Below, one piece after another: positions 592 through 43,269 of a DNA stretch of 64,000 nucleotides. The position numbers were made by a program, and so were the translations under genes. The stretch comes from a virus. Taxonomy: Duplodnaviria; Caudoviricetes. The notes below the pieces were generated by a model. That model was not told the DNA's origin. It saw only the letters and a list, made by a program, of their open reading frames with translations, and did no database searches. The stretch lies in the IMG/VR virus record IMGVR_UViG_3300038525_000015, positions 16,980 to 80,979 of that record. The stretch is one strand, 5' to 3'. How positions within the stretch are numbered: position 1 is the first letter of the stretch; each line of letters starts with the position of its first letter.

Positions 592-1746
592 TTAGCCCAG
601 CAGCAGGGCGATGTGTTCCGGCTTCACGGCAGCGCAGCCCCAGGCCACGGCGATTTCGTACTGGATCTGGCGGTACTGCTTGTACAGCGAGACCTCGAAC
701 GACAGCCCGGACACCGGGTCGGTGATGATCATGCGGTCGGATGCGCTGTCGCCGCCGTCCGGCAGTGCCGGGGCGCGAGTGGCCAGGGCGATGGCCGAGC
801 GGCTGAACGCCATGTTGCGGCTGGTCGCGGCAATCACGGTGATGGCCACGGCCGAGGCCGGCAGGGCTTGGCGCAGGCCGGGCGCAGCGATGGTGATGGT
901 GCCGCCACCGGATACGTCAGCATCGCCGGAGACCACAACGTACTTGTTCGGGTCGTTGGCGAAGGTGATCACATCGCCGGCCAGGATCGTGCCGGTGCCG
1001 GCCGAGGCCAGCGCGATGGTGGTCGCGCCGACCGCATAGCCGGCGGTGCCGGTGGTGGCGAGCGCGCCAGTGCCGGCGGCGTGGGTCTTGATCTGCGCGG
1101 ACTCGCGGATAGCGAAGCCGTGCAGGTCGGTCAGCACGCCGCGACGCAGCAGGTCGTCGCCGCCAGCCTCGTTGACGCGGGTCAGGTTGGCCAGGGTGCG
1201 CAGATTGGCGCCGGCAGTGGTATCGATCACCAGTTGCAGATCGCCCATCGGGGCGCCGTTGTCAGCGAGGATCTTGCGCGCCTGAGCGGAGTCGCCCAGG
1301 GTCGAGGCGAACGGCACGGTGCCAGCGGCGCCGGCGGCACGGGACGCCTTGAGGTGCAGGGCGGCCAGGTCGCCTTCGATCTCGTTGACCAGCGCGCGCA
1401 TGGCCTGGGCGAACTGGTCGCGCAGGATGACGTTGTAGCTGGCACCGTTGTTGTCGAGGCTGCGCTTCTCTTCACCGTTCCAGCGCACCGGAACACGGCG
1501 AGCCTTGGTGATGGTCATGTCGACCTTGCCGATCACCTGGTTGCCGTCGTCCGGCGCGGTGACGGCCGGGGTGATATCGGTCGCAGCGGCGGCCGGAGCC
1601 ACCGGAGAGGTGACGGTCTGGCCGACAGCGGCACGGTCGTAGGTCATGTCGCTGGAAACGGCCGGGATGAAGCCGACCAGTTCACGGGACACGACATCCA
1701 TGGCGTTGTACAGGGTGGTGGTCAAGCCGGTGAGGGTGTTGCTCAT
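592..1746 (-). CDS. Major capsid protein (P22 coat-like)
   Basis: 384 aa, AGGAG RBS, follows scaffold; MSNTLTGL..LYNAMDVVSRELVGFIPAV start and terminal 'WGCAAVKPEHIALLLG'. Confidence 0.9.
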   Translation of the reverse strand: MSNTLTGLTTTLYNAMDVVSRELVGFIPAVSSDMTYDRAAVGQTVTSPVAPAAAATDITPAVTAPDDGNQVIGKVDMTITKARRVPVRWNGEEKRSLDNNGASYNVILRDQFAQAMRALVNEIEGDLAALHLKASRAAGAAGTVPFASTLGDSAQARKILADNGAPMGDLQLVIDTTAGANLRTLANLTRVNEAGGDDLLRRGVLTDLHGFAIRESAQIKTHAAGTGALATTGTAGYAVGATTIALASAGTGTILAGDVITFANDPNKYVVVSGDADVSGGGTITIAAPGLRQALPASAVAITVIAATSRNMAFSRSAIALATRAPALPDGGDSASDRMIITDPVSGLSFEVSLYKQYRQIQYEIAVAWGCAAVKPEHIALLLG

Positions 1747-1760
1747 GGATTTCTCCTGAA

Positions 1761-2513
1761 TCAGTCAGTGACCGCGCCGCCGGAACGGATGTATTCCGCC
1801 TTGCCAACGGGGTCGAGCTGGTCGAAAGCGGCGCGATTGATGGTTTTCTTGCCCTTGGCGCCGCCGTTCGGTTGCGAGCCGCCGCCGTTCGCGGTTGCCG
1901 GCCACCAGTGGGGCGCCTTGTCTTTCATTTCCGCCATCCACTCCTTGAGGGTCAGCGGCTTGCCGTCCTTGCCGAACAGCCCTTCGGAGGCGACGGGATT
2001 GCCGTCCTCGTCGAGCTGGAACAGGGACTGAGCCCGGAACAGCGCGTCCTCGACGGCGTGCTGGTGGATGCCGGCGGCGGACGCCTCGGCGCGGATGCTG
2101 TTTTCCAGGACGCGGCGAGTGAACTTCTCGGCGCGCTGCTCGGCAGCCTCGCGAGCCTGGCGCTCCTTGGCGGTTTCCTGCTCGAAGCCCTGTTTCATGC
2201 GCTCGGTGCGCTTGTTGAGCACCTCGTCGATCTTCCCGGAGGCGATCAACTTGGCCTCTTCGTCGTCACTGAAGCGTTGCAGGATGGTGCGCACGGCGTT
2301 CGGGTCGATACCCTCGAACTCCTTGAGCTGGTCGCCTGCGGTCTTGACCTTGCCCAGCAACTCGGCGTTCTTGGCCTTGAGGCCCGTCACTGCCTGGTTT
2401 ACCTGGGCGTCGATCAGCGCCTGAATCTCCGGGGTGATCTGCGGCCCTTGGCCACCGCCGCCCTCTGCGCCTTCGCCGGCTTCCTGCATGAACAGTTGCT
2501 TGAGTTTGAACAT
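1761..2513 (-). CDS. Capsid scaffolding protein
   Basis: 250 aa coiled-coil, 'GLKAKNAELL', C-terminal 'APHWWPATANGGG', directly upstream of capsid. Confidence 0.85.
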   Translation of the reverse strand: MFKLKQLFMQEAGEGAEGGGGQGPQITPEIQALIDAQVNQAVTGLKAKNAELLGKVKTAGDQLKEFEGIDPNAVRTILQRFSDDEEAKLIASGKIDEVLNKRTERMKQGFEQETAKERQAREAAEQRAEKFTRRVLENSIRAEASAAGIHQHAVEDALFRAQSLFQLDEDGNPVASEGLFGKDGKPLTLKEWMAEMKDKAPHWWPATANGGGSQPNGGAKGKKTINRAAFDQLDPVGKAEYIRSGGAVTD

Positions 2514-2583
2514 TGGTTGATCCCCTTGGGACGATGGCGGCCTGGCCGCGTTGGTTGGGCGCCGGCTTTACCGGAGCCAGAAA

Positions 2584-2612
2584 CGAAAAAGCCCCGGCAG
2601 GTGCCGAGGCTC
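2584..2612 (-). terminator. Intrinsic terminator-like hairpin
   Basis: GCCTCGGCACCTGCCGGGGC followed by TTTTTCGTTT on minus strand. Confidence 0.65.
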
Positions 2613-2664
2613 TTGTGGGGTTGCGCCACGTTTTGCGCTGATCGCGTTTCGTGGCGCGAAAATG

Positions 2665-2687
2665 AAAAACCCGGCACGGGGCCAGGT
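2665..2687 (-). terminator. Second terminator-like hairpin
   Basis: ACCTGGCCCCGTGCCGGGT followed by TTTTCATT on minus strand. Confidence 0.5.
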
Positions 2688-2708
2688 CTGGATGTCAGGC
2701 GTTAGGGG

Positions 2709-2840
2709 TCACTCTTCCTCGTCGAACAACGGGTCGACCTCGTCTTCCCCATCGTCGAGCCAGTCATCACCCTCAGGCAACGTGCCGTCATCCAGCAGGT
2801 GTTCGTGTTCGGGCTCGAAATCTTCGTCGCGCTCAGTCAT
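2709..2840 (-). CDS. 43-aa highly acidic peptide (not in ORF track)
   Basis: AAGGA RBS; MTERDEDFEPEHEHLLDDGTLPEGDDWLDDGEDEVDPLFDEEE; 22 of 43 residues D/E. Confidence 0.65.
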   Translation of the reverse strand: MTERDEDFEPEHEHLLDDGTLPEGDDWLDDGEDEVDPLFDEEE

Positions 2841-2901
2841 CGGCGTGTCCTTGGAGAGTCGTGAGCGCAAGGTTACCCGCGACCTGCGGATGCCGGCCAG
2901 C

Positions 2902-3156
2902 TCAGCACAGCACCACCCTCTCGCCCTTCATAAAGCACGACGCGCACAGGATCTGCTTCGTCCCACCGCTCGCCTTCCCGTTCTTGTAGAACATGCCGAT
3001 CTTGGTCTCGATGACCTCGCGCGAGCCGCACCGGTAGCACTGAATCATGTGCGCCGGCTTGGGCATCGCTCGGACGCGCTTGCGGGCCTGCTCCAGAGGG
3101 GTATCCGGGGCATGTGTTCCTTGGATGACGTGCAGCTGGGGTTTCTGGTCGCTCAT
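2902..3156 (-). CDS. Small zinc-ribbon protein, 84 aa
   Basis: ATGA overlap with MuF gene stop; CYRC...CASC. Confidence 0.75.
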   Translation of the reverse strand: MSDQKPQLHVIQGTHAPDTPLEQARKRVRAMPKPAHMIQCYRCGSREVIETKIGMFYKNGKASGGTKQILCASCFMKGERVVLC

Positions 3157-23688: not shown

Positions 23689-24462
23689 ATGACCGACCTT
23701 ACCGCCGCTGCCCCGCAGCAGGGGTTCAGCCTCACCCCGAAATCCCTCGACGAGGCCATGCGCTTCGCTGACATCCTGGCTAAGTCCAGCATCGTGCCCA
23801 AGGACTTCTCCGGCAACCCCGGCAACATCCTGGTGGCCATCCAGTGGGGTCTGGAGCTGGGCCTGCAGCCCATGCAGGCGATGCAGAACATCGCGGTCAT
23901 CAACGGCCGCCCTGCTCTCTGGGGCGACGCGGTAATCGCCCTGGTTCGCAGCTCCCCGCTGTGCGAGTACATCTACGAGACCGACGACGGCGAGACGGCC
24001 ACCTGCCGGGTGAAGCGCCGTGGCGAAGAAGAGCAGGTCCGCACATTCAGCATGGCCGACGCGAAGGTCGCTGGCCTGCTGGGCAAGGCTGGCCCCTGGA
24101 CGCAGCACCCCCGGCGCATGCGCCAGATGCGCGCCCGGGCCTTCGCCCTGCGCGACGTGTTCCCGGACGTGCTGCGCGGGATGCCGGTAGCCGAGGAAGT
24201 GCAGGACATGGTTCCGGCGGAGCGCGACATGGGCTCGGTACCGCGCACCACGCCGCAGCAAAATCAGCTCCCCGCAGCTCTGCCGGCTTACCCCGACGAG
24301 AAGCTGGCCGAGATGCTGCCGGCCTGGCAGGCCGCTATCGCGGAAGAGAAAACCACCCCCGAGCGGATCATCAAGATGGTGCAGTCGAAGCACGTCCTGA
24401 CCGATGACCAGCGCCAGAAGATCATGGACCTACAGCCGGCCCTGGAGGGCTCCGCACAATGA
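23689..24462 (+). CDS. recT: RecT-like ssDNA annealing protein
   Basis: 'IQWGLELGLQPMQAMQNIAVINGRPALWG', 'PRRMRQMRARAFALRDVFPD'; paired with YqaJ. Confidence 0.85.
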   Translation: MTDLTAAAPQQGFSLTPKSLDEAMRFADILAKSSIVPKDFSGNPGNILVAIQWGLELGLQPMQAMQNIAVINGRPALWGDAVIALVRSSPLCEYIYETDDGETATCRVKRRGEEEQVRTFSMADAKVAGLLGKAGPWTQHPRRMRQMRARAFALRDVFPDVLRGMPVAEEVQDMVPAERDMGSVPRTTPQQNQLPAALPAYPDEKLAEMLPAWQAAIAEEKTTPERIIKMVQSKHVLTDDQRQKIMDLQPALEGSAQ

Positions 24463-26021
24463 GCATGACCATTCATGACGTAGCCCAAGGCACCCCGGAG
24501 TGGCACGCCCTGCGCGCCGATCACTTCACCGCCTCCGAGGCGCCCGCGATGATGGGCGCCTCGAAGTACCAAAGCCGGACCGAGCTGCTGCAGGCGAAGA
24601 AGTCCGGCCTGGTGCCGGAGGTGACCCCAGCCCAGCAGGCGCTGTTCGATCGCGGCCATGAAACCGAGGCCCTGGCCCGCCCCATCGTCGAAGAGACGCT
24701 GGGCGAGGACCTGTATCCGGTGGTTGGCACCAGCGGCAACCTGCTGGCCAGCCTCGACGGCCTGACCATGCTGGGCGACGTCATCTTCGAGCACAAGTTG
24801 TGGAATGAAGAGCTGGCCGCCCAGGTGCGCGCCGGCGAGCTGGATCCGCACTACTACTGGCAGCTTGAGCAGCAGCTGCTGGTCAGCGGCGCCGAGCGGG
24901 TGATCTTCGTGGTATCGGACGGCACCCGGGAGCGCTTCGCTCACATGGAATACCGCCCGGTGCCTGGCCGCGCCGAGCAGCTGGTGGCCGGCTGGAAGCA
25001 GTTCGAGCAGGATCTGGCCGCATTCGAAGTGCGGGCGCCGGCCGAGCCTGCCGCCGTTGGCCGCGCACCCGACGCACTGCCGGCCCTGCGCATCGAAGTC
25101 ACCGGCATGGTGACTGCCAGCAACCTTCAGGCCTTCCGTGATCACGCCATGGCTGTGCTGGGCGGCATCAAGACCGAGCTCGCCACCGATCAGGACTTCG
25201 CGGACGCCGACAAGACGGTCAAGTGGTGCAAGGACGTCGAAGATCGCCTGGCAGCGGCCAAGAGCCATGCCCTCAGCCAGACCGCCAGCATCGACGAGCT
25301 GTTCCGCACGCTCAACGCAATCGCCGACGAGACTCGGGCCAAACGCCTGGAGCTCGACAAGCTTGTGAAGGCCCGCAAGGAAACCATCCGCCTGGATATC
25401 AAGGCCAAGGCGGAAGCCGCGCTGGCCGCGCATATCACCGAGCTGGAAAAGGGCCTGATGCCGGTTCGCCTGCCCCGCACCACTGCCGACATTGCCGGCG
25501 CCATGAAGGGCAAGAAGACCGTCGCCAGCCTGAAGGATGCTGCTGATACCGAGCTGGCCAAGGCCAAGATCGAGGCCGGCGCCATCGCCGAGCGGATCGC
25601 TACCAACCTGCGCACTGTCCGCGAGAAGGCGCCCGATCACGGCTTCCTGTTCAACGACCTGCAGGAGCTGGCCCAGAAGGATCCCGAGGCGGTGGCTGCC
25701 ATCGTGGCCCAGCGCCTGGCCGACCACCAGCAGGCCGAGCAGCGCCGCCAAGATGTCGAGCGCGAGCGCATCCGGGCAGAGGAGCAGGCGAAGCTGGCCA
25801 AGCCGGCGCCCGCTCCGGTGATGGACGACGAGCCGTTCGTCTCCCAGCTTTCGGAGCAGATCGGTCTGGCGCCGCGCCGTTCGGCTCCGGCGGAAACCAT
25901 CACCATCACCCGCGCCGAGTACGACCAGCTGCTGGCAGATCAGCGCCTGCTGCGCGCCCTGCAGGCTGCCGGCGTGGATAACTGGGATGGCTACAGCGAG
26001 GCGCTGCAGGAGGTCGCCTGA
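24459..26021 (+). CDS. YqaJ-type viral exonuclease with coiled-coil extension
   Basis: 'QGTPEWHALR...TASEAP', 'LASLDGL', 'FEHK', 'YYWQLEQQLLV'. Confidence 0.92.
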   Translation: MSMTIHDVAQGTPEWHALRADHFTASEAPAMMGASKYQSRTELLQAKKSGLVPEVTPAQQALFDRGHETEALARPIVEETLGEDLYPVVGTSGNLLASLDGLTMLGDVIFEHKLWNEELAAQVRAGELDPHYYWQLEQQLLVSGAERVIFVVSDGTRERFAHMEYRPVPGRAEQLVAGWKQFEQDLAAFEVRAPAEPAAVGRAPDALPALRIEVTGMVTASNLQAFRDHAMAVLGGIKTELATDQDFADADKTVKWCKDVEDRLAAAKSHALSQTASIDELFRTLNAIADETRAKRLELDKLVKARKETIRLDIKAKAEAALAAHITELEKGLMPVRLPRTTADIAGAMKGKKTVASLKDAADTELAKAKIEAGAIAERIATNLRTVREKAPDHGFLFNDLQELAQKDPEAVAAIVAQRLADHQQAEQRRQDVERERIRAEEQAKLAKPAPAPVMDDEPFVSQLSEQIGLAPRRSAPAETITITRAEYDQLLADQRLLRALQAAGVDNWDGYSEALQEVA

Positions 26022-31431: not shown

Positions 31432-32466
31432 ATGGGAAGACGACCGACAAAGCCGGGCGCGATCGCTCGGCTCAGGGAGCGCCGCAAGCCCAGCGGCAAG
31501 GTGTATTACTACTACGACGCTGGCGGGAAGCCTCGCCGGGAAATCCCGCTGGGCAGCGACTACGGCATGGCCATCGTCAAATACGCCGAGCTCGAGCGCG
31601 ACCGGACGGCGGACGGCATTCGCCAGGCGGTGATCACCTTCGCCTACGTCGCGGACCAGTACCTGATCGAGATCGTGCCCACCAAGGCGCCGGGCACCCA
31701 GGACAAGAACAAGCAAGAGCTGGCCCGTCTCAAGGAGTTTTTTTGCGACCCGCCTGCGCCGCTGGAGGCCATCCAGCCGCAGCACGTCAAGCAGTACCTG
31801 CGTTGGCGGAAAAGCGCGCCGGTATCCGCGAACCGCGAGAAGGCGCTGTTGTCGGCCATCTGGAATTACGCCCGCGAAGCTGGATATACCGCGCTGGCCA
31901 ACCCCTGCGCCGGGGTCAAAGGCAACAAGGAGAAAGGCCGCGTCAACGTATACATCGAGGACAGCATGTTCCAGGCAGTCTACCAGGTGGGATGCGCCGG
32001 CTTGCGGGATGCCATGGACCTGGCCTACCTGACCGGCCAGCGCGTTGGCGACACCCTGCGCATGGATGAGCGCGACATCCGAGACGGACACATCGCGATC
32101 ACCCAGGCCAAGACCAAGGCGAAACGGCGAATCGAGATTGCCGGGGAACTGGCCGCGCTGGTCGAGAGGATCAAGGCGCGGAAGGCGGGTCACAAGGTCC
32201 GCTCAACGCGGCTGGTTGTGACAGAGGACGGCGCACCCATGACGGCGGCGATGCTGCGGGGCAGGTTCGACAAGGCCAGGGAGGCTGCCGGAATCCCGAA
32301 AGCTGAATTCCAGTTCCGCGACCTACGGGCCAAGGCCGGCACCGACAAGGCGGAATCGAGCGGCGACATCATGCAGGCTCGCGATCAGCTCGGGCACACC
32401 AGCGTGGTGATGACCGAGCAGTACATCCGCGAGCGTCGAGGGAAAAAGGTCTCGCCAACGCGGTAA
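31432..32466 (+). CDS. int: Tyrosine integrase
   Basis: 'LTGQRVGD', 'FRDLRAKA', 'LGHTSVVMTEQY'. Confidence 0.97.
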   Translation: MGRRPTKPGAIARLRERRKPSGKVYYYYDAGGKPRREIPLGSDYGMAIVKYAELERDRTADGIRQAVITFAYVADQYLIEIVPTKAPGTQDKNKQELARLKEFFCDPPAPLEAIQPQHVKQYLRWRKSAPVSANREKALLSAIWNYAREAGYTALANPCAGVKGNKEKGRVNVYIEDSMFQAVYQVGCAGLRDAMDLAYLTGQRVGDTLRMDERDIRDGHIAITQAKTKAKRRIEIAGELAALVERIKARKAGHKVRSTRLVVTEDGAPMTAAMLRGRFDKAREAAGIPKAEFQFRDLRAKAGTDKAESSGDIMQARDQLGHTSVVMTEQYIRERRGKKVSPTR

Positions 32467-32591: not shown

Positions 32592-32651
32592 GGAGACTTA
32601 AAATCTCTCGCTCGCAAGAGTGTGCCGGTTCGAGTCCGGCTTCGGGCACCA
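32592..32651 (+). pseudogene. 3' fragment of tRNA-Leu(UAA); att site of prophage 1
   Basis: GGAGACTTAAAATCTCT, long variable arm, GGTTCGAGTCC, CACCA end; 5' half replaced by phage DNA. Confidence 0.9.
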
Positions 32652-32786
32652 GAATATCCCTCGCCCCAACGGCACCTCCGCCCCCCAGAGGAGATGCTGA
32701 GCCTCCCCTCAATCCTGATCCCTCGCCATAAATGCCAGCGCGCGCAAGTGCCGGGGAAACGATTGGGAATTATTGATACGCAAATG

Positions 32787-32827: not shown

Positions 32828-32874
32828 TGGAGGCCGAGGTCGGAATCGAACCGGCGTACACGGATTTGCAATCC
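32828..32874 (-). pseudogene. 3' fragment of tRNA-Cys(GCA); att site of prophage 2
   Basis: GGATTGCAAATCC-GTGTAC-GCCGGTTCGATTCCGAC-CTCGGCCTCCA; 5' half absent. Confidence 0.9.
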
Positions 32875-32891
32875 GACGAACAACCCTTTAA

Positions 32892-32990
32892 TTTCAATAC
32901 GTTAGCCGATTTTCGTTTCCGCAATCAAGCGCTTTCGTGGCGTTTCTAGGCCGCCAAGGGCGCGGGTCTGGCTTTTCGATGCGGAAACGA
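32892..32990. promoter_or_regulatory. Prophage 2 att arm: IHF-like site and inverted arm-type sites
   Basis: TTTCAATACGTTA (32892); TCGTTTCCGCA (32913) and inverse TGCGGAAACGA (32980). Confidence 0.6.
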
Positions 32991-33342: not shown

Positions 33343-33939
33343 GTGAAGAAAGGAATACTTGCCCTGGCAGCAGCCTCCCTCGCGCTGGTCGGATGTGCCA
33401 GTACGAAGCTGACCGCCTACACCGATCCAGCTTTTCAGAACGCTCCGTACAGAAACTTTGTCGCTCACGCGACAAATGGAGATTTGGAGACGCAACGTCT
33501 ATTTTCCTCGAAGGCCTGCGAGGCACTCCGATCACGGAAAGCCACCTGCACGCCCGCACTGGATATCTTTCCTCCAACGCGCCAGTACACCGATGGCGAA
33601 GTCACGAAAACGCTCAAGGCACGCGGAGTTGATGGCTACCTTTTGATTGCCATCGGGGGAGGCTCCAGTTCCAGCCAATACCTCGGCAGCCAATCTCTGG
33701 CTACGGTCAACGCTTACGGTACGAGTATCAGCAGCACGAACGTGGCTGCGTACTCACATGCTCGCCAGCAGAGCTATGATCTCGTGCTTATTGATATCGC
33801 AACGCAAGAGCGGGCCTGGGTAGGCGGCGCACGGGTTTCTGGCCAGGGAGCTCTCAACGTTACCGACGAAGCATTTGCTTCTAGCCTGAGCATCGAACTG
33901 GTAACCGCTCTTAGAAAAGCCGGCCACATCACCAAGTAA
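33343..33939 (+). CDS. Moron lipoprotein, 198 aa
   Basis: AAGGAG RBS, GTG start; lipobox LVGC; lower GC; opposite to late genes. Confidence 0.85.
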   Translation: MKKGILALAAASLALVGCASTKLTAYTDPAFQNAPYRNFVAHATNGDLETQRLFSSKACEALRSRKATCTPALDIFPPTRQYTDGEVTKTLKARGVDGYLLIAIGGGSSSSQYLGSQSLATVNAYGTSISSTNVAAYSHARQQSYDLVLIDIATQERAWVGGARVSGQGALNVTDEAFASSLSIELVTALRKAGHITK

Positions 33940-33985: not shown

Positions 33986-34228
33986 ATGTTCGAGGACATG
34001 GACATCCAAACCCTCATCGGCGCGGCTCTCGGCCTGCTGTTCCTCGGCGCCCTGGTTATGACTCAGATGCCGAAGGAGTGGCAGACCATAGGCGGCTGGC
34101 TCCTGGTCAGCCTGGCCGGTATCCCCCTGTTCGGGGTCGTCCTCGCCGTTCTGATCAAGGTCCCCCTGCTGCTATTCGGCGCAGTGGCCTGGGCCTGCTT
34201 CCATGCAGGCCGCAGCAGCCGGCGCTGA
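33986..34228 (+). CDS. Small multi-TM membrane protein, 80 aa
   Basis: Almost entirely hydrophobic, basic tail. Confidence 0.7.
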   Translation: MFEDMDIQTLIGAALGLLFLGALVMTQMPKEWQTIGGWLLVSLAGIPLFGVVLAVLIKVPLLLFGAVAWACFHAGRSSRR

Positions 34229-37200
34229 TCACTCCCTCGCGCGAGCCTCCTCGATCCGCTTCCCTGCCCTCTCGGTCAGCCGGCTCTTGATGGCCTGCAA
34301 CCGATCCAGCTCCCGCCGCTTGCGCTCGCCGTCCCAGTCGCTGCGGCGCACCATATCCATGCGGGCATTGATGCCGCTGAGTTGCTTCTGCACCTCAGCC
34401 AGCGGTTTACGCATTGCCAGCACCTGCCGCTTCTCCTGAACCAACTCCCTCGCTTCATCCTTACGCCCCAGCTCCTGGAGACGCTTCGCGTCGGCATACA
34501 CCCGCCCGGATTCTTTCAGGCCTTCATAGAACAGCGTGCTGTAGCGGTCATACGGCGCCGGCGCGCCCAGGTCGCGGTAGAACCGCCGGATCGGCTGGTA
34601 CTCGTGCCAATGCTTCGCCGGCTCGCTCTCGCCGCCCGCTGCGCGCCAGACCGTATCAGTGATGCCGGCGCCCCAAGCGCCAACCTGACCGAGGTAGCCC
34701 CTGATCAGGTGATCGGCCTGCAGCGACGAGAGTGCGAATTCTTCGCCCAGCACTGCGGTGGCCGAGGAAATCGCTTTCGCCGGCGCAGTGCTGCTCGCTC
34801 GATCGCGCAGGGTTGGGCTCACTTTCTCCATCCCGGCGCTCTCGATAGGCCGGCCGGTGAAAGCATCCCTGTTCGAGTACACATCCAGCGCTGGCTGGAA
34901 CATCTGCGGCACCGGACTGAAGCTGAACGTTTGGGTGAGCATCGCCCACAGCCGCTCGCGAAACAGCTTGCCGCTGGCCTTGTCGTCGACTGCCTGTTCA
35001 GCCAGACGCTCCACCAGCGTGGAAATGGCACCCACCTCGAACGGCTTGGGCAGGAAGAAGGCGTTATCCCCGACGCGGAAGAACCAGAAGCTGTCCTTCT
35101 GCCAGTCCTCGAGCTTGCGGTACTCCTCGTCGTCATGGTTCGCCAGGAAAAGCGCCAAGCTGGCCAGCGCCAGCGCACCGGTCACCGCGGCGAACCGGGC
35201 GGCCGCCACCTTGTCGCTGTTGGTGCCCTTGCCGAAGGCAACCTTGACCGCCGGCTTGAAGCCCGAGCGATACAGTTTGTCGAGGCCCTGCAGGCGAGCA
35301 TTTAGAAATGGCACAACGCGAATCAGGAAGCGCACCGCCGGCCAGGCGCCTTCCTGGCTGAAGTCCATCAGATCGCGCGCCTCGTAGGCGGCGCGCAGCG
35401 CACCCTTGTCCTTGTTCTGCAGGAAAGCCGCCGCCCGATTGGCGTTTTCGGCGGTGTTAGCCGCCTCGTTGTAGGCGTCCCAGCCGGCCACCAGCAGCTT
35501 CGGCACCAGGGCGGGAGCGTCCAGCAGCTTCGCGCCGCGCAGGGAGCGCTTGAGCCCGGCCTTCACCTCCTCGGGATCCGCACCGTAGATATGCCCGAAG
35601 CTGAATGCACCACCACTGGCCAGCATCTGCGCCCTGGTCTTCTGATCGCGGAAGGACTTCAGGCCCTGAAACATGTTCGCTGGCACGTTCTTGCTCACCG
35701 GCGTGGTGGCGGCGGCCTGCATCGAGTCGCGCAGGAAGTTGGCGATGATGAACTGCGGCGTGATGGTGGTCATGTTGGTGAACACCCGCTTGAACTTGGC
35801 CATGGTGCGCACGGCGAAGTTGTTGAGCCCCGGGTCGGCCAGCGAGCTCAACGCCTCGAACACCAGGGCATCGTCCACCTCGTACCAGACCTTATCGCCC
35901 TTCTCCAGAACGAAGGTGCTGGTCTTGGGATCGCGTGCTGCCTCTGGGACCTTCCGCGCAATCTGCAGGCGCTCAGCGTTGGCGATGGTTTGCGCCGCGG
36001 CCTGGTTCTTCAGGCTGGCCGTCAGCAGGTGGTGGAAGTTCATCAGGGTGTTTTCCAGCAGGTCATTCAGATTCTGCTTCCCGCCCTTGAGCTTCTTGTA
36101 CGCCTCCTGCCGACTCAGCCCCTTGGACGAAACCGGGCCCTTCGCCTTGGCCTCTTCATCCATGACCCGATAGAACGGGACGTAGAACTCGTCCCGCCAC
36201 ATGGCACGGTTCTCGGAGCTGATAATGCCGGTCTGCTCAGCAATGGCCAGCACGTCGTCGCGGTACTGCTGGAACTCCTTGAAGACCTCATCGTAAAGCG
36301 ATGCACGGGTGCGGCCGTCTTCAGTGACACCCCTGTTGATCCCTTTCAGCGCCTCGATGTCCTGGGCGGTGAACAGGTTTTCCCTGCCCTCTGCCGCGAG
36401 CTTGGCCGCCCGATTGCCGGCCACCCAGCCGAAGAAGCGCTCGATTTCCTTCGCATCCCCAAGCCGGCCCAGCACTTCACCCAGACCCATACTGCCGTCT
36501 TCGCGCATGCCGATCACTTTCTGCTGCGGATCGAGGACGATGCGGCCGTTGTGCATCATGGCGTTGAGCGCACCGGCGGCCGCCGGCGCCATGCGGGCCA
36601 GTACCCAGGCGCTGCTGGTGATCGAAGTGTCGAGGAAGTCGAGGCCGTGAGCCTTCTCGTCGAGTTCCTTCAAGGCGGCGTAGCGATCGACCAGGCCCTG
36701 GCGGATCTTGGTCATAGCGCGGTCGGCGCGCTCGCGGAACCAGAGCGTTGCGCGCTGGCGAGCAGTCGGGGGAGCGATCTTGCCCAGCGCATCGCGCTCG
36801 GCCTGGCTGAGATCGGCGAAAGCTTCGGAAACGTGGGGGCGCGTCGACCGCAGCGAGTAGCGGGTGTCTTCGGAGGGGTCTACAGGTGCTTCAGTTCCGG
36901 ATCGATCGCCAGTTGCTGCTTGGCCCACTCGGAAGAGGCCTTCATCTCGCGCCGCAGAGATTCGATCTCGGATTTCGTCAGGCGATAGTTGCCCTTTGTC
37001 GAACGTGAGGAGGGTTCGAGCTTCGGACTGGGTGAGCCCTTCGAAGCCATAACCGAAGGTTTCACGCCACCAGGGTTCGATATCGCTGTACTTGCCACGG
37101 ACTTGCGCCAAGGTGTCGGGATCAATCGCAAGTTTCCGTGAGTAGTTCTTGCCGGTCAAGGCAAGCGCTGCCAGCACCTGGCCGCCGTTGTCCTCGATGT

Positions 37201-40200
37201 GCGTCTTCAACTGCGCCAGAGTTCCACCCTGGGTCAGGGTGTCGTCGAGGAGCAGGTACTCAGCGGCGACCACGCCACCATCGAAGGTCGGCTGATTGGC
37301 AATGCGCTCCAGAGCATTTGACTGGGTCCGACCAACCTTCTGCGCCTGCATCACATTGGTGTCGGTCTCCAAGCCCAGGCGCTGCGCCAGCACCTCGGCA
37401 GCCATCAGCGGAATCCGATTGTCCCCCGCACCCTCGCGCGCCAGCACCGGCACGATGCGCGGCAAGCTGCCCTCCGGAATCAGCGCTCGCACCCGCTCGA
37501 TGAACTCCGGCGTTACAGCATCGCGGGCGACGCGCAGCGCGGCCGCGTCGTCGCCGGCCTTGGCTGCGGCGTAGTCGGGGTGGTTGTTCAGGAAGCTCAG
37601 GGGGTGCGCCAGCACCGTATCGGGGAAATCCGCCGCCCAGCCTCGACGGGAGTAGAGCTGGTCGGAACCAGACAGGTTCGCGCGCTGCGCACGCAGCCAG
37701 TCCCGCGACTGCTCGATCAGGGCCAGCACGTCGGTGTAGGTCCAGTTCACCTGGGGGAACAGCTTGCGCAGCAACTCGCGGATCTTCGACGCCACACGCT
37801 GAAGCACGGTCGGTCGGTCGCCCGACTCGGCCAAGTGGGCAATGATCTCCTCGGCAATCAGCAGGCGCTGCTCCGCTGCGCTCTTGCCTTGGAGCACGGC
37901 GGCGTAGTGCTCGCGGATCTGCGCCACCCGCTGCCGGCCGGTGGTGCGGGCCATCTCGCTGGAATAGATGCGTTCCAGCGTGCCGTCGAGCTGATCACCC
38001 AGCAGGCCGCGAATGCCCTGGTGGCCAACCATCTCGTGCACCGCGGTGCGGATGGCTTCTTCCAGATCCTGCTGGTTGTCGGCGACCAGGTACTGCGCAT
38101 CCGGCCGAAACACACCGCGGACATCATGGGACCGCACACCATCACGCTCAGCGCGGATTCGCACCGACAGAGGCAAGTCGCCAAAGGCCTGCACCACTTG
38201 GATGCTTGCTAGCTCAGGATGCTTATCGATCTCCGTTTGGATTTCCACCGCCGACACCTGGCCACGGCCGTCTAGGCGGTACATTTGGACGCCACTATCC
38301 GTCTCGCGCGTTTCGATGATGCCGAAGAGCTCATCAAACGCAGCACGCACTGAAGGGAGCTCTGCAGCTGTTAGGTAGGGGTAACGATCCGGGTCGCTGT
38401 ATGCCGTCTCCGATACGATATTCGCCAGGTAATCGCTGCTAATACCAGCGTCCTGCAGCTTGGCTATGACATGGCTTTCGAAGGCGCGAGCCGACATTTC
38501 CAGCGCCGTTGACCAGTAATCCTTGCTGCGTGTTGCGTCTAATTGCTCGGAACGCTTCTGCAAGTCTGTCGCCCTGAGCGCACTCATCAGACGACTGAAG
38601 GCTTCGATGAGCTCGGGGCGTACACCCTCACCGCGCTTGTAAGGCCGCTCAGTGAGATAAGCATCCGGCTGACTTCTGGCCCGACTGAGGTAGTTGTCGA
38701 AGGCATGCCACCACTCATGCGCCAGCGAGCCAGCACCGTTCCCCTTGGTCAGGTTAATGACAGTCTCGCCCGACTCGTAATGCGCTTTTGCCGGGTCAGG
38801 CCCACCTCTACCACGCGCACCGAACGCTAAAGCGAGCTCTCCATTGAGCGACAGAGCCTTGGCCGGGATGTTCAAGATGCCGGCCAAATCACTCAGCGCG
38901 TCGAATGCTTCGTTGAGCTCTTGCTGCCGACGGTTGTTTTCAACGTAGTTGCCAAACTGCACACCACGAAAACCGAAGGTCTCGCTGAACAGCTCGGGGG
39001 TAACATCCTGGCCATTCCGGTAGTCGACCCCAACCCGAGGCGCGTTGCCTTCACCTCGGTGCGCGGGCACCTCTTTTAGCGCGTCGTACTGCCTTTCTAG
39101 CGAACTCTGATTTTCGCCCAGATACTTGCGTGCCTCTGCCAAGCTGTCGAACGATCGAAGCCGCGCAACGCGCTTGCCATTTTTTTTCCCAATGAAATAG
39201 CCGCGCTCGCCACGCTGAGAGAACACATCGAAGCGGATGGCGTTGTCGGCTTTTTTCTTCACAGACTCGAGCTTGGCATGTACCTCCGCAAAGGCGTCCA
39301 AGGCTTCCTGCTTGGTGTTACCGGAGGCCAATTCTTGCGGCCAATTACTCAGCGCCGTAGCTTTTGCATCCTTGCTGGCAATCCATTTATTGACGTTTTT
39401 CTCGCCTCGATACATCGAGAAATAGCGCTCGGCGAACGTAATGCCCTTGAGCGAATGCGCATGTCCAAAGCGCTGATACAACTCCACCCGGCCAGCCAGA
39501 CCGCGCAACGCGGGGTGGTCGTCGTAGAGGCTTGAGCGAACCTCTTCGGTGAGTTCGCCGTGATCCAAAATCCGGCGCGTCGCATTGCGCAAAAGATCAA
39601 CCTGGTCAGCCCACCGACTCAGCTTGTATGGATTGCTGGGTTTGGTGGGCACCTCATCTCGGGCAGCATGTGCAAAAGCAACCGCCCAACGGTCACCACC
39701 CTGATCCAGAAGTGCCTGATAGTCCGGTTCAGGCCAAGACTTAGACAGCGGTACCGCTTTCACGTCCGCTTGCATCGCCACGTCGAGCTGCTGCGTATAG
39801 GACGAAAACTTGCGCGCGCCCTCGATTCGCTCTCCGAAGTCGTCGATCTTCTTTGTTGGCTTGGGTGTAGCGGCTGGTTTTTCGGCGACTACCTGCTTGG
39901 CCGGCAGAGTGTGTTCCACTTGGTCGCGCTTGGCGGGAGCGTTGCGCTCCGCGCCCGATGCCAGTTTTTGCTCAGCTGAAGAGCCGGAGGAGGTGTCGCT
40001 TACGCGGTCGGTTGCTGCAGGGCCTGCTTCGCTTGCCGACGAGCCAGGCGCTCCTGCGTCGCTTGCTCGATGCGCGCCTGCAGCTCGTTCTGGCGCCTTT
40101 CCAGCTCCACTGGATCGCTGGTCCCGAAGTGCTCGATCGCTCGTTGGAGCCTGGCTTCCGCTGACATGCTGGGTACCTTTTTTGCTCTGATCCATCGCCC

Positions 40201-43200
40201 TATCGGCGGCGTTCATGACATCCGCAGAAGTGAGGCCTGCTTCGATCGGGGAAACCCCCAGATGCAGCCCCACGCCACGTTTGGACTCGTCGTCAGGATG
40301 CTTCGGGTGGACGATCTTGTCCAGCCCTTCCCGGCGCGTGTAGGCCTTGGCGGCCGCCTGGCCACGCTCCAGGGCCGCCTCGACTGCCGCTCGCTCGCCG
40401 CCAATCACCAGCACGCCGAACTCGTCGCCGCCGGTGCGGAAGCCTTCGACATGGCCGACCGCGCCCAGCTCCTTGCGCACGATGTCCGCCAGCGCCCGGT
40501 AGTGCTTGTTGGCGTCCCGAGCCACGTTGTTGAAATGCGCGTTCAGTCCACCCAGGTTAGCGATGTCGGCGCTCACCCAGTACGCCTCGCCGTCGGTGGC
40601 GGCCACGTACTCGATGGCTCGGCCAATGGCGCGCTCAGTGTCAGTGCTGCCGTCTTCCGCTTCGCGCCGGCCCTCGAACAGTCCGGTGGTGGCATCGATG
40701 GGTGCGGAGAAGCGCGACTTGCTGGCCAGGCGCTCGGCCACGTCCGGGGCCACGCCGTCGGCGATGTACTCGTCGATAACGGCCTGGCGGTAGGAGTCCG
40801 CATAGGGCGTATAGCCAGCAGCCGGCCCCTGCTCGGCGCGCCCTGCCTGGGCGAGATCCTGGGCCGGCTTGGTCAGGTCTCCCTTGAGCCAGCGCTTGAA
40901 CTGCTCGACCGGCATGGCCGTGACCTCGCCCACCTTCCAGTCCGGATCGAAGTTGGAACGGTAGGCCTCCACCGCCGCGGCCTGGTCGGGATAGCCCAGC
41001 ATCACCTTGTGCTCATCGAAGCTGCCATCCTGCTGGTGGAGCTGGTCAACGATGAACACCTGGTCGCTGTCTTCCTGCGGCCCTAGGTACACGTCGACCT
41101 GCTCTTGGTCGGCGCCAACGGTGCGCTTGATGTAGCCGTAGTGATCGCTCATGGTGTGACGCCACTCGGTACCATCCGGGCGCTTGCCGCTGCGCTCGGA
41201 GCCGCGCGGATTCTCAACAGCGATATCCAGGCCGGCGACGCGCACATGCCCCTTGCGGTAGTTGCCGGTCTCAATCTGCGCCGGCGTGGGCGCCGGCAGG
41301 TCGTTGTTCGGGGAGGTGGCCGCCTGATCTGCCTGTTGGTCGATCGGACGTGCCGGACGCAACGGCTGCGGTTCCTGCTGCTTGGGCACTGCAACGGCCC
41401 AGCCATCACCGTGGCGCACGATCTGCGGCTGCTCGCCAGCCTTCGCCGCCTCGCGATACAGGAGGCTCGCGCGCGCATCGCCGCGCCCCTGGAACGGCTT
41501 GCCGTTCTTGCGCAGCCGAATTTCCAGATCCGGCGCGCCGCTGGCGTCAGCAGTTGGAGCGTGCTGGTCCATCCCGCGCCCGCCCGGCAGCGGCCGTTCG
41601 GGATTCGGAGCCACGAACGGCCCGGTCGGCCCCCGCTGAGCATTGCCCTGGCTATCCACCACGATGCTATCCGGGGCGGGCAGTGCCTGGCGCTCCGGTG
41701 CGGCGTCGACCGTGGCAGGCTCCGCGGCTGCGCGCCCAGGTGCCGCCGGCCGACTGCCATACTGGAACTCGCCAGCCAACGGCGCCGGTTCGCCTCGCGG
41801 GGTCGGCTGATCCATACCCGGCCCACCGGGCATGCGCTCCGGATCGTTCTGCGGATTGACCCACTGGCGTGCCTGCAGATCCGGCCGCTGCTCGCCGTCC
41901 ACGTTGCGCACCGGCCCGGTGTCTTGCACGTTGCCTTGGCTGTCGGCATAGAAGACCTTCTCGGGCGCCGGCAGTGCCTGGTGCTCAGGTGCCGGCAAAG
42001 CGCCGGGCTCGGGGGTGTTCTCGAAGGTGGCTTCGGGGGTCGCGAGATCCTGGGCTGCAGCGCTAGCAGGCCTGACGCGCGGCGTGGCCACCGCACCCAG
42101 CCCCCCACCCATAACAGCGCCAGTGGCGAGGCCGCCAAGCCCTGCGTTCAGCACGCCAGCGCCAAGCTTTCGATTCGGGTCGGCGTCCTGCATGGCGTAG
42201 TTCTCTGCCACCTGCTGCCCAATCGACTGCGGCAGCTCTTCCAGCAGGCCTTCGCCAACCGCGCCCTTGGCGATACGCCCGCCGATACCCGCTGTCACCC
42301 TGCCAGTCAGCAGGTTGGCCAGCGCACGGTCGCCCATGCCGCCGAAAACACCCGTGGCCGCGCCAGCTATGAGCAGGCCTTGGGTGGCAGAGTCCTCAGC
42401 CAGTTGCGCCCGCGCTTCCTCCGGCTTAAGCCCCTCTTCCAGCAGCGTCTGAAACGCCTCGGACTGCTGCAGTTGCTCCAGCGGCATGGCGGCGATCTGG
42501 TCGCGCACCTGGCGCGCCGTGTCCGCTCCGCCCAGCAAGCCCTCGGAAACGCCGCCGGCCACGGTCGCCATGCGTGCGGCGGCCTTCGCCGCCACTGCTT
42601 TATCCCCCGTCTTGGCCAGCGCGCGAGCATAGGCGCCCTTGGCCAGCCGGCCCGCCGCGCCCATGGTGATGGCCATCTCCGGCAGCGACTGGATGATGCC
42701 GCTGGCGTAGGCGCGCGGATCAGTCCAGGCCGAGCCGAGCGAACCGGTTTCCTCATCCCACCACAACTTCTGCTGCGCGCCACGCATCTCGGGGGTCAGG
42801 TTCTGCTGGTACTTCTGCTCGTTTTCCCGCAGCAGCGTTTCGGAGTCCTTGCCCGACAGGAAGCGGTCGGCGGCATCACCCGCCGCCAGCAACCCTTCGC
42901 CCACCACCGGGATGCGCCCCACCAGCTCGCGCACGTTCTGCGCCGCGCGGTTGACGCCTGCTGCCAGGAGGTTGCCTGTGTCGGTGAGCAGATTGCCGCT
43001 TTCCGGGGATTCCGCATCAGCCCCAAGGGTCGACCGACCAAGCGTGCTCTGCGTGTCCTGGTCGAACAGCTCGCGGGCACGCGGCTCCATGCCTGCTGGA
43101 ACCCGAGGCATAACCACTTCTTGGAAGTAGAGTTCGCGAGCACGCTCTTGGCGTTCGGGCGCCAGCGCGCGGAATTGCTCGCTGGCAGCCACCTCCGCCC

Positions 43201-43231
43201 AGCGGCGGGGTTGGCGGGTTTCGTTCTGCAT
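34229..43231 (-). CDS. Giant polyvalent virion/ejection protein (3000 aa): InPase-like, GGDEF, LPD5/LPD1-like, zincin metallopeptidase, PRTase-like, LPD38-like domains
   Basis: 'GNYRKGH..YGYI..T.GAD..VDVY..FDEHKVMLG' (~40880-41290); GGDEF at 40418-40432; 'KKIDDFGERIEGARK'; 'GSLAHEWWHAFD'; 'AVHEMVGH'; 'LLLDDTLTQGGTL'; C-terminal 'FFLPKPFEVG'. Confidence 0.92.
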   Translation of the reverse strand: MQNETRQPRRWAEVAASEQFRALAPERQERARELYFQEVVMPRVPAGMEPRARELFDQDTQSTLGRSTLGADAESPESGNLLTDTGNLLAAGVNRAAQNVRELVGRIPVVGEGLLAAGDAADRFLSGKDSETLLRENEQKYQQNLTPEMRGAQQKLWWDEETGSLGSAWTDPRAYASGIIQSLPEMAITMGAAGRLAKGAYARALAKTGDKAVAAKAAARMATVAGGVSEGLLGGADTARQVRDQIAAMPLEQLQQSEAFQTLLEEGLKPEEARAQLAEDSATQGLLIAGAATGVFGGMGDRALANLLTGRVTAGIGGRIAKGAVGEGLLEELPQSIGQQVAENYAMQDADPNRKLGAGVLNAGLGGLATGAVMGGGLGAVATPRVRPASAAAQDLATPEATFENTPEPGALPAPEHQALPAPEKVFYADSQGNVQDTGPVRNVDGEQRPDLQARQWVNPQNDPERMPGGPGMDQPTPRGEPAPLAGEFQYGSRPAAPGRAAAEPATVDAAPERQALPAPDSIVVDSQGNAQRGPTGPFVAPNPERPLPGGRGMDQHAPTADASGAPDLEIRLRKNGKPFQGRGDARASLLYREAAKAGEQPQIVRHGDGWAVAVPKQQEPQPLRPARPIDQQADQAATSPNNDLPAPTPAQIETGNYRKGHVRVAGLDIAVENPRGSERSGKRPDGTEWRHTMSDHYGYIKRTVGADQEQVDVYLGPQEDSDQVFIVDQLHQQDGSFDEHKVMLGYPDQAAAVEAYRSNFDPDWKVGEVTAMPVEQFKRWLKGDLTKPAQDLAQAGRAEQGPAAGYTPYADSYRQAVIDEYIADGVAPDVAERLASKSRFSAPIDATTGLFEGRREAEDGSTDTERAIGRAIEYVAATDGEAYWVSADIANLGGLNAHFNNVARDANKHYRALADIVRKELGAVGHVEGFRTGGDEFGVLVIGGERAAVEAALERGQAAAKAYTRREGLDKIVHPKHPDDESKRGVGLHLGVSPIEAGLTSADVMNAADRAMDQSKKGTQHVSGSQAPTSDRALRDQRSSGAGKAPERAAGAHRASDAGAPGSSASEAGPAATDRVSDTSSGSSAEQKLASGAERNAPAKRDQVEHTLPAKQVVAEKPAATPKPTKKIDDFGERIEGARKFSSYTQQLDVAMQADVKAVPLSKSWPEPDYQALLDQGGDRWAVAFAHAARDEVPTKPSNPYKLSRWADQVDLLRNATRRILDHGELTEEVRSSLYDDHPALRGLAGRVELYQRFGHAHSLKGITFAERYFSMYRGEKNVNKWIASKDAKATALSNWPQELASGNTKQEALDAFAEVHAKLESVKKKADNAIRFDVFSQRGERGYFIGKKNGKRVARLRSFDSLAEARKYLGENQSSLERQYDALKEVPAHRGEGNAPRVGVDYRNGQDVTPELFSETFGFRGVQFGNYVENNRRQQELNEAFDALSDLAGILNIPAKALSLNGELALAFGARGRGGPDPAKAHYESGETVINLTKGNGAGSLAHEWWHAFDNYLSRARSQPDAYLTERPYKRGEGVRPELIEAFSRLMSALRATDLQKRSEQLDATRSKDYWSTALEMSARAFESHVIAKLQDAGISSDYLANIVSETAYSDPDRYPYLTAAELPSVRAAFDELFGIIETRETDSGVQMYRLDGRGQVSAVEIQTEIDKHPELASIQVVQAFGDLPLSVRIRAERDGVRSHDVRGVFRPDAQYLVADNQQDLEEAIRTAVHEMVGHQGIRGLLGDQLDGTLERIYSSEMARTTGRQRVAQIREHYAAVLQGKSAAEQRLLIAEEIIAHLAESGDRPTVLQRVASKIRELLRKLFPQVNWTYTDVLALIEQSRDWLRAQRANLSGSDQLYSRRGWAADFPDTVLAHPLSFLNNHPDYAAAKAGDDAAALRVARDAVTPEFIERVRALIPEGSLPRIVPVLAREGAGDNRIPLMAAEVLAQRLGLETDTNVMQAQKVGRTQSNALERIANQPTFDGGVVAAEYLLLDDTLTQGGTLAQLKTHIEDNGGQVLAALALTGKNYSRKLAIDPDTLAQVRGKYSDIEPWWRETFGYGFEGLTQSEARTLLTFDKGQLSPDEIRDRISAARDEGLFRVGQAATGDRSGTEAPVDPSEDTRYSLRSTRPHVSEAFADLSQAERDALGKIAPPTARQRATLWFRERADRAMTKIRQGLVDRYAALKELDEKAHGLDFLDTSITSSAWVLARMAPAAAGALNAMMHNGRIVLDPQQKVIGMREDGSMGLGEVLGRLGDAKEIERFFGWVAGNRAAKLAAEGRENLFTAQDIEALKGINRGVTEDGRTRASLYDEVFKEFQQYRDDVLAIAEQTGIISSENRAMWRDEFYVPFYRVMDEEAKAKGPVSSKGLSRQEAYKKLKGGKQNLNDLLENTLMNFHHLLTASLKNQAAAQTIANAERLQIARKVPEAARDPKTSTFVLEKGDKVWYEVDDALVFEALSSLADPGLNNFAVRTMAKFKRVFTNMTTITPQFIIANFLRDSMQAAATTPVSKNVPANMFQGLKSFRDQKTRAQMLASGGAFSFGHIYGADPEEVKAGLKRSLRGAKLLDAPALVPKLLVAGWDAYNEAANTAENANRAAAFLQNKDKGALRAAYEARDLMDFSQEGAWPAVRFLIRVVPFLNARLQGLDKLYRSGFKPAVKVAFGKGTNSDKVAAARFAAVTGALALASLALFLANHDDEEYRKLEDWQKDSFWFFRVGDNAFFLPKPFEVGAISTLVERLAEQAVDDKASGKLFRERLWAMLTQTFSFSPVPQMFQPALDVYSNRDAFTGRPIESAGMEKVSPTLRDRASSTAPAKAISSATAVLGEEFALSSLQADHLIRGYLGQVGAWGAGITDTVWRAAGGESEPAKHWHEYQPIRRFYRDLGAPAPYDRYSTLFYEGLKESGRVYADAKRLQELGRKDEARELVQEKRQVLAMRKPLAEVQKQLSGINARMDMVRRSDWDGERKRRELDRLQAIKSRLTERAGKRIEEARARE
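36880..37050 (-). CDS. Putative nested small gene (+1 frame) after PRTase-like domain, 56 aa
   Basis: MASKGSP...YRLTKSEIESLRREMKASSEWAKQQLAIDPELKHL; GC3 bias shifts into this frame. Confidence 0.55.
   Translation of the reverse strand: MASKGSPSPKLEPSSRSTKGNYRLTKSEIESLRREMKASSEWAKQQLAIDPELKHL
40000..40167 (-). CDS. Putative nested small gene (+1 frame) after GGDEF domain, 55 aa (not in ORF track)
   Basis: AAGGT RBS; MSAEARLQRAIEHFGTSDPVELERRQNELQARIEQATQERLARRQAKQALQQPTA; GC3 bias shifts into this frame. Confidence 0.6.
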   Translation of the reverse strand: MSAEARLQRAIEHFGTSDPVELERRQNELQARIEQATQERLARRQAKQALQQPTA

Positions 43232-43269
43232 CGATGCCTCCCGGCAGTGATGATGTGTGGTGCTGAGGC

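Follow-up and report, generated by a model that had tools for sequence, protein, structure and literature searches.

A 3000-residue phage polyvalent protein with InPase, GGDEF-like, zincin and phosphoribosyltransferase-like cargo

Gene and domain architecture

The window analysed is the whole 64,000-nucleotide stretch corresponding to bases 16980–80979 of the 80,979-base IMG/VR record IMGVR_UViG_3300038525_000015 (Caudoviricetes), and the gene under study is a single uninterrupted open reading frame on its minus strand encoding a protein of 3000 amino acids, here called P0001 (Table 1). A Shine-Dalgarno sequence (GGGAGG) stands 6 nt 5' of the ATG; the end of the upstream gene lies 38 nt earlier. 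The Shine-Dalgarno sequence lies inside a small hairpin (TGCC-GGGA-GGCA, window 43235–43246, minus strand).

The whole protein was searched against Pfam, and four families exceeded their thresholds: InPase (E 1.6e-54), LPD5 (residues 1282–1418, E 1.4e-34), LPD1 (residues 1564–1641, E 4.4e-17) and LPD38 (E 2.4e-40). At least six distinct domain families were found within the 3000 residues, which thus hold the several unrelated domains that define a polyvalent protein. The original prediction, made from the letters alone, had called the gene polyvalent and had listed seven motifs from an ejection-type N-terminus to an LPD38-like C-terminus; all seven were found in that order (DIANLGG at 889–895, the other motif residues in Table 1), and the named domains were supported by profile or fold tests or, for the putative second zincin, by the invariant residues and predicted secondary structure on which its assignment rests. 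Helicase and methyltransferase families were absent at E ≤ 1 from the Pfam search of all 3000 residues, in agreement with the earlier failure to recognize DarB-type motifs, and the same search gave no lysozyme or other wall-cutting domain elsewhere in the protein. Atlas searches returned only unnamed or LPD38 clusters.

Table 1. Position of P0001, its modules and the adjoining late operon in the window (all on the minus strand)
Feature	Residues	Window coordinates	Strand	Basis or remark
P0001, whole gene, phage-type polyvalent protein	1–3000	34229–43231	-	3000 codons + stop
Gly/Ala-rich N-terminal module	1–400	42032–43231	-	PHROG matches; also in giant podophage virion proteins
Pro/Ala/Gly-rich linker	401–640	41312–42031	-	read from translation
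InPase domain	651–783	40883–41281	-	Pfam PF18823, E 1.6e-54; family I pyrophosphatase-like, polyvalent-protein clade
GGDEF-fold nucleotidyl cyclase-like domain	800–1030	40142–40834	-	family profile and AlphaFold/Foldseek
GGDEF letters	934–938	40418–40432	-	
Ser/Ala/Gly-rich low-complexity linker	1031–1125	39857–40141	-	left edge of cassette breakpoint
LPD5/HEWWH zincin (CLCA_X-type)/LPD1 module	1126–1645	38297–39856	-	Pfam and NCBIfam NF041907
HEWWH	1505–1509	38705–38719	-	
Second zincin, HExxxH type (putative)	1660–1860	37652–38254	-	alignment A4, AlphaFold2 model
HEMVGH	1732–1737	38021–38038	-	
Type I PRTase-like domain	1869–2094	36950–37627	-	phrog_22413, family profile
PRPP loop LDDTLTQGGT	1995–2004	37220–37249	-	
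Conserved C-terminal module, defining family core	2114–3000	34232–36892	-	Pfam LPD38 and phrog_18222
Single strongly hydrophobic segment	2677–2699	35135–35203	-	Kyte-Doolittle; sole window with mean ≥ 1.4
LPD38	2701–2879	34595–35131	-	PF18857, 139 bits (cut-off 27)
Late operon upstream of P0001, same prophage		43270–63314	-	PHROG: small and large terminase, portal, head, internal virion protein, tail fibres

Domain identification

The InPase domain scored 183.9 bits (cut-off 26.8), and its acidic residues E673, D708, D713, D729, D739 and E740 were at least 95% conserved in 53 sequences. The portal protein gp19 of Pseudomonas phage Pa193 ends in the same domain (PDB 9b41 chain L, residues 636–761, E 3.2e-27); this fusion to a portal argues that the InPase module has a place in the virion. 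Pa193 is a contractile-tailed phage, and its cryo-electron microscopy (cryo-EM) model covers portal residues 94–528 only, the InPase domain being unresolved in the map.

Pfam GGDEF was sub-threshold on the whole protein (E 0.036), and single-sequence searches with the GGDEF and the phosphoribosyltransferase (PRTase) segments gave sub-threshold Pfam matches and chance PDB matches; they were dropped in favour of family profiles. An exhaustive HMMER search with residues 800–1035 returned 385 cluster representatives (238 below 1e-10), and 67 of the best 150 homologues are at least 1500 residues long. The family alignment (A1) has the invariant signature D-I-x-N-L-G-G-L-N, R-x-G-G-D-E and H-P-K-H-P-G-D, which in P0001 reads DIANLGGLN (889–897), RTGGDEF (932–938) and HPKHPDD (975–981). 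D889 (the metal-binding Asp), N897, R932, G934, G935, D936, E937 and a C-terminal Lys are invariant, P0001 thereby having the GG(D/E)EF active site, the Arg before it and the metal-binding Asp; the final position of the signature is variable across the family (GGDEF/L/I/V/M). When the A1 profile was run against the PDB it matched GGDEF cyclases almost exclusively: all matches below E 0.5 were GGDEF-domain proteins (best 1.2e-7). Pfam GGDEF was matched by 14 of 19 family members at E ≤ 0.01 (best 1.4e-13). An AlphaFold model of the domain (predicted local distance difference test, pLDDT, 90.2) was compared by Foldseek, and the listed matches (97 at E ≤ 0.001; best E 7e-10, probability 1.00) were all GGDEF domains. 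The model and the profiles thus identify a true GGDEF-fold domain with its catalytic hairpin, within a separate, largely phage-borne lineage. No RxxD inhibition site (I-site) was found in the P0001 domain, and no MuF or portal fusion was found by Pfam in ten mid-sized representatives of the family.

Residues 1869–2094 matched phrog_22413, an unnamed 242-residue family (E 3.2e-58). Solo homologues are about 240 residues long; some are named phosphoribosyltransferase by NCBI, and a few have PF00156 in their precomputed annotation. In the alignment (A2) D1996, D1997, G2002 and T2004 (the DD pair and the GGT loop) are invariant and an Arg is near-invariant. The A2 profile matched in the PDB only chains of the PRT superfamily (28 chains, best E 6.4e-5), namely adenine phosphoribosyltransferase (APRT), ComF, phosphoribosyl pyrophosphate (PRPP) synthetase, PurR, and hypoxanthine-guanine and orotate phosphoribosyltransferases (HGPRT, OPRT). 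P0001 thus has an acidic pair followed by T-x-GGT, the PRPP-binding loop, within a PRT-type profile match, and the family profile supports membership of the segment in this superfamily.

The original prediction had attached HEWWH to an LPD5/LPD1-like region. Both LPD5 and LPD1 are present, but HEWWH sits between them and is itself a zincin signature, and P0001 therefore has two metallopeptidase-type modules. The NCBIfam family CLCA_X (NF041907) matched residues 1399–1621 (E 6.5e-42; 143.7 bits against a full-length cut-off of 260), a domain match covering profile positions 3–229 of 250, so that P0001 is not a full-length member. In 20 sequences (P0001 and 19 solo bacterial copies) LAHEWWHAFD and E-x-x-ARAFE were invariant; the latter lies about 70 residues downstream of HEWWH, inside LPD1, and reads ALEMSARAFE in P0001. 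The two elements form a gluzincin-type signature and, since this signature runs across the end of LPD5, HEWWH and LPD1, these look like one metallopeptidase-type domain, which would be a small gain in annotation. A CLCA_X-type profile found no matches among PDB sequences. A link of the module to the self-cleaving CLCA proteases is a lead only, suggested by the NCBIfam name and the HEWxH motif. In Pseudoalteromonas, Ferrimonas, Agarivorans and Alishewanella, solo chromosomal proteins with LAHEWWHAFD...E..ARAFE (about 220–245 codons; L097–L160) are frequent; their identity to P0001 residues 1399–1640 is about 35%.

The reading of HEMVGH as a zincin held in that it marks a second metallopeptidase-type module (zincin 2); the motif itself is HExxxH, not HExxH. 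H1732, E1733, H1737 and E1795, the last 58 residues downstream of the motif, were invariant in 29 sequences (A4). The AlphaFold2 model (pLDDT 88.2) has a three-stranded sheet (model strands 36–39, 63–67 and 72–75) and two long helices (82–119 and 144–162) that bear the invariant residues. In the predicted module the HExxxH helix is thus followed by one that bears the Glu, together with a three-stranded sheet, and this core, with its HEXXXH variant, is that described for the metallopeptidases (MPTases) of polyvalent proteins (Iyer et al. 2017; PMC5512222). The zincin 2 family profile gave nothing meaningful among PDB sequences, a peptide-pattern scan of IMG/VR found nothing, and the solo homologues amounted to one fragment.

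At the N-terminus, residues 66–525 matched PHROGs of giant podoviral virion proteins (phrog_10089 'DarB-like', phrog_938 and phrog_2206 'virion RNA polymerase'), and the module is similar at the DNA level to the DarB-like gene of Serratia phage Parlo; it is a candidate packaging/ejection module. The linker that follows holds two repeats of about 100 residues (ALPAP...DSQGN.Q) and a small basic segment, and is conserved in 47 of the 120 relatives described below. At the other end, phrog_18222 (unnamed) matched residues 2114–2962, a PIRRFY ('PLxRFG') motif lies within the C-terminal module, and the hydrophobic segment directly before LPD38 is a candidate transmembrane helix.

Distribution of the modules among relatives

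A word-indexed search gave 1115 relatives of 1650–5250 residues, and modules were counted by segment-by-segment BLAST over the best 120 of them. The C-terminal 900 residues were present in 120/120, zincin 2 in 101, HEWWH/LPD1 in 74, LPD5 in 55, InPase in 52, PRTase in 23, the variable N-terminal module in 18 and the GGDEF-like module in three. The C-terminal module was also found at no fewer than 583 IMG/VR loci and in 51 cultured phage records (Vibrio phages, Escherichia coli phages PTXU04 and Pondi, Bacillus Page-like phages and Pelagibacter phages), where it is often fused to methyltransferases. Among the best 79 of the IMG/VR loci InPase occurred in 13, PRTase in three and the GGDEF module in none; the last was also absent from all 14 of the closest genome loci. 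Across these three samples the GGDEF cassette is rare in the LPD38 lineage of P0001. The unusual cargo that had been proposed is unusual in its combination only, of pyrophosphatase, GGDEF-type cyclase and PRTase modules.

The trio of InPase, GGDEF and PRTase was shared only with the two closest relatives, P0002 and P0003; other relatives hold ART, ParB-like, RadC, MuF-C or helicase domains instead. Zincin 2 stands immediately before the C-terminal module in most loci, and in P0001 the PRTase is inserted between the two. P0003 is 97% identical to P0001 over residues 1659–3000 and 88% over 81–1095; residues 1096–1658, and with them the whole LPD5/HEWWH/LPD1 module, are missing. P0004 lacks residues 1096–1671 and the PRTase and has a MuF-C-type domain (PF18819). 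The breakpoints of both proteins, which come from other assemblies, fall in low-complexity linkers, and cassette exchange has been recent and clean. Such natural, near-identical variants, P0003 for the first zincin module and P0004 for the PRTase, can serve as deletion controls.

Genomic context

P0001 closes a podovirus-like late block whose genes all lie on the minus strand. Two small genes on the opposite strand stand just after it: 33344–33939 (plus strand) encodes a lipoprotein with the signal MKKGILALAAASLALVGC, and 33990–34230 (plus strand) encodes a protein of about 80 residues with several hydrophobic helices, its stop abutting that of P0001. Two small reverse-strand genes also follow the giant gene in Bcep22-like phages (PMC9144972).

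The locus lies in the second of two prophages placed back to back, and this second prophage is cut by the record end. A full tRNA-Leu(UAA) gene was located at record positions 992–1077, and its 3' part recurs, identical over 62 nt, just after an integrase, at about window 32592–32653. The integrase (31432–32466) was considered as part of the P0001 phage (attP-int) and rejected: since the tRNA-Leu 3' repeat directly follows it, it belongs to a separate, complete left prophage. That prophage is lambdoid, about 48.5 kb long, bracketed by the tRNA-Leu gene and its 3' copy, integrase-ended, and contains repressor, RecE-like, O-like and DnaB-like genes. Its RecE-like exonuclease (520 residues, 24459–26021, plus strand; phrog_7655, E 2.5e-210) matches 'host RecBCD nuclease inhibitor' PHROGs with its C-terminal 40 residues.

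ARAGORN called no tRNA in the window. Inspection by eye revealed a tRNA-Cys-like 3' part (GCA anticodon loop and T arm) at about window 32830–32900 (minus strand), near the start of the second prophage; it faces the tRNA-Leu fragment over about 180 bp with a hairpin terminator and is probably the attachment-site (att) remnant of the second prophage. The closest genome copies of P0001 were found in Aquipseudomonas alcaligenes NBRC 14159 and Pseudomonas spp., and the host is therefore very probably a bacterium of the Pseudomonas lineage.

Proposed function and alternatives

We consider it likely that P0001 is a packaged and probably ejected polyvalent protein in which a fixed frame carries exchangeable nucleotide-enzyme and zincin cargo that alters host nucleotides. 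It would be made late, packed in the capsid of a short-tailed temperate phage and ejected with the DNA into the next cell. The frame (the Gly/Ala-rich N-terminal module and the 900-residue LPD38 C-terminal module) would serve packaging, ejection or membrane passage, and between its two parts the InPase, GGDEF-like, CLCA_X-type zincin, HExxxH zincin and PRTase-like modules would be carried as cargo separated by floppy linkers, at which one or both zincins may cut the chain after delivery. The GGDEF-like domain would then condense two nucleoside triphosphates to a cyclic dinucleotide and inorganic pyrophosphate (PPi), the PRTase-like domain would use or make a phosphoribosyl nucleotide with release of PPi, and the InPase, placed directly before the GGDEF-like domain, would clear PPi and so pull both reactions. 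By their joint action the cargo enzymes might change nucleotide signalling or nucleotide pools in the host within the first minutes after infection.

What we infer in this scheme is that the protein is packaged, ejected and self-cleaved, and which substrates and products its enzymes have. Virion delivery is proposed because homologues are virion-associated and the gene has a late-operon position. JC1 gp69, a protein of the Bcep22 gp75 type, was represented by 51 unique peptides in CsCl-purified virions (PMC9144972). Gp47 of phi24B, a Shiga toxin (Stx) phage and temperate podovirus, has 2811 residues with LPD5, LPD1, LPD38 and a metallopeptidase; it was abundant in virions by mass spectrometry and missing from the cryo-EM map, and its authors therefore suggest a place inside the capsid (bioRxiv 10.64898/2026.04.10.717836). 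Stx-phage genes of the LPD5 type, taken to be gp47 homologues, matched P0001 residues 1129–1869 at about 34% identity (E 2e-81).

Several points weigh against this reading. Packaging and ejection of P0001 are drawn by analogy from homologues and gene position, and its cleavage is a prediction. Many relatives have InPase but neither GGDEF nor PRTase, and P0047, P0054 and P0056 have PRTase but no InPase; since relatives carry the three singly, they do not form an obligate unit. The isolated PRTase segment scored 12 bits against a PF00156 (Pribosyltran) cut-off of 26.3, and the isolated GGDEF-like segment 19.9 bits, below the PF00990 gathering score of 23.8. Fold searches placed zincin 2 without confidence: Foldseek gave nothing at E ≤ 0.001, and a wide VIA search gave Z ≤ 4.9, with the minimal zincins YbeY, 3e11 and Wss1 (Z 3.4–4.5) among tied weak rows. 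In the GGDEF-like family DIxNLGGLN stands in for DxDxFKxxND, so that FK is gone; of the guanine-reading Asn/Asp pair (PleD N335/D344) the Asn is kept as N897, while the Asp position aligns, by alignment to DgcB, to N908, an Asn in the family consensus; and a His/Lys insert, HPKHPGD, is invariant and family-specific. With these three departures the product, and even the type of reaction, can only be putative. GTP is thus not assured as a substrate, the Asp being replaced by Asn and the FK of DxDxFK missing, and the earlier proposal that the protein targets PPi, GTP and PRPP was overstated. GGDEF enzymes act as dimers, and the pairing mode of the P0001 domain is not evident.

An alternative is that P0001 has a chiefly structural role, in ejection or as a conduit. 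It would then be the internal core by which the short tail is lengthened to cross the envelope, the nucleotide enzymes being passengers of minor importance and the peptidases acting on the wall or on the protein itself. The C-terminal 900 residues are the sole universally conserved part and occur in phages of very different hosts, a single hydrophobic helix is predicted before LPD38, no wall-cutting domain was found elsewhere by Pfam, and this role, proposed for gp47, is favoured by the phi24B authors (bioRxiv 10.64898/2026.04.10.717836), which tells against an effector reading. However, the catalytic residues of the InPase, GGDEF-like and PRTase-like domains are invariant over hundreds of diverged sequences, which argues for a selected enzymatic function; zincins of the P0001 type are cytoplasmic-style minimal peptidases with no known link to peptidoglycan; and structural and effector roles are compatible. 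As the main role of the protein, a conduit is unlikely, although it fares best among the alternatives.

Somewhat less probable is a narrower form of the effector reading, in which the InPase and GGDEF-like domains form a virion-delivered synthase of a signal other than cyclic di-GMP (c-di-GMP) that perturbs cyclic-nucleotide immunity, the PRTase feeding or draining the pool and the InPase pulling both reactions. The specificity is suggested by the Asn that replaces the guanine-reading Asp and by the invariant, phage-only insert; a mixed or non-guanine cyclic nucleotide appearing within minutes of entry may jam, pre-empt or mimic immune signalling.

The same replacements of FK and the Asp, the insert, the score below the Pfam gathering threshold and the variable last signature residue would also suit a domain that is not a cyclic-dinucleotide synthase at all and is instead a repurposed palm domain, e.g. 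a signal-nucleotide sponge or another nucleotidyltransferase. This we doubt strongly, the metal-binding Asp, the Asn, Arg-x-GGDE and the C-terminal Lys being invariant and all significant fold matches being active-type diguanylate cyclases.

That P0001 is a DarB-like anti-restriction protein, shielding incoming DNA by modification or helicase action, is hardly credible: the best PHROG label ('DarB-like antirestriction') and the nucleotide match to the Parlo gene favour it, but the match is confined to the N-terminal Gly-rich module (66–525), for which reason the label was rejected, and the Pfam search of the whole protein gave no helicase or methyltransferase family at E ≤ 1.

The preferred reading thus remains that of a packaged, probably ejected carrier of nucleotide enzymes and zincins. 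If its GGDEF-like domain were active on entry, this would show that a phage can import a second-messenger synthase of its own. Few phage proteins are larger, or have been tested less, than the polyvalent ones, and P0001, with three nucleotide enzymes with intact motifs in one chain, is a compact test case.

Comparison with known systems

The survey of polyvalent proteins by Iyer, Burroughs, Anand, de Souza and Aravind (2017; PMC5512222) covers InPase, GGDEF, PRTase, zincin MPTase (including HEXXXH), LPD1, LPD5 and LPD38. It treats InPase and LPD38 as restricted to phages, explicitly counts GGDEF, InPase and PRTase among the nucleotide-related cargo, and proposes injection followed by cutting by the proteins' own MPTases. 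Every module type is therefore already described there, and the cargo is of a known kind. P0001 resembles the phage-type proteins of that survey in its many unrelated domains, its virion-gene setting and LPD38. Among the proteins compared, the combination and order InPase-GGDEF-zincin-zincin-PRTase-LPD38 was shared by P0001 and P0002 alone, P0003 lacking the first zincin, and the reading of HEWWH as a zincin with its Glu helix in LPD1 was not found in the text of the survey (PMC5512222). No assays of GGDEF-, PRTase- or InPase-type polyvalent cargo were found in the literature. The finding is thus a well-supported annotation and not a new principle.

Canonical GGDEF cyclases (PleD, WspR and DgcB; PDB 1w25, 3i5b and 6tts) share with the P0001 domain the fold, the RxGGDEF hairpin, the metal-binding Asp and the base-contacting Asn. 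Apart from the replaced DxDxFKxxND motif, the Asn at the guanine-reading position and the HPKHPGD insert, the P0001 domain differs from them in lacking the RxxD inhibition site and a sensory partner domain.

phi24B gp47 is like P0001 in having LPD5, LPD1, LPD38 and a metallopeptidase; in contrast, no InPase, GGDEF or PRTase is reported in gp47, its host is enterobacterial, and similarity in the C-terminal part is below the reach of tblastn. The 'DarB-like' Lessievirus proteins Bcep22 gp75 and JC1 gp69 share with P0001 the place of last giant gene in a podoviral morphogenesis block and the phrog_10089 N-terminal module; they are 4500–4600 residues long and have a helicase-type region (a HepA match in JC1), whereas P0001 has neither helicase nor methyltransferase and hence not the helicase and DNA methyltransferase of the P1 DarB type. 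The prophage protein of A. alcaligenes NBRC 14159 (L082) and its relatives P0005–P0014 (Pseudomonas) have the same frame, with InPase, HEWWH zincin, LPD1, zincin 2, PRTase and C-terminal module at 76–83% identity, but lack the GGDEF-like module, have no recognisable LPD5 and have another segment after the InPase. Against these systems, what is specific to P0001 is the presence of three nucleotide enzymes in one chain, the rare GGDEF cassette and the existence of natural single-cassette variants.

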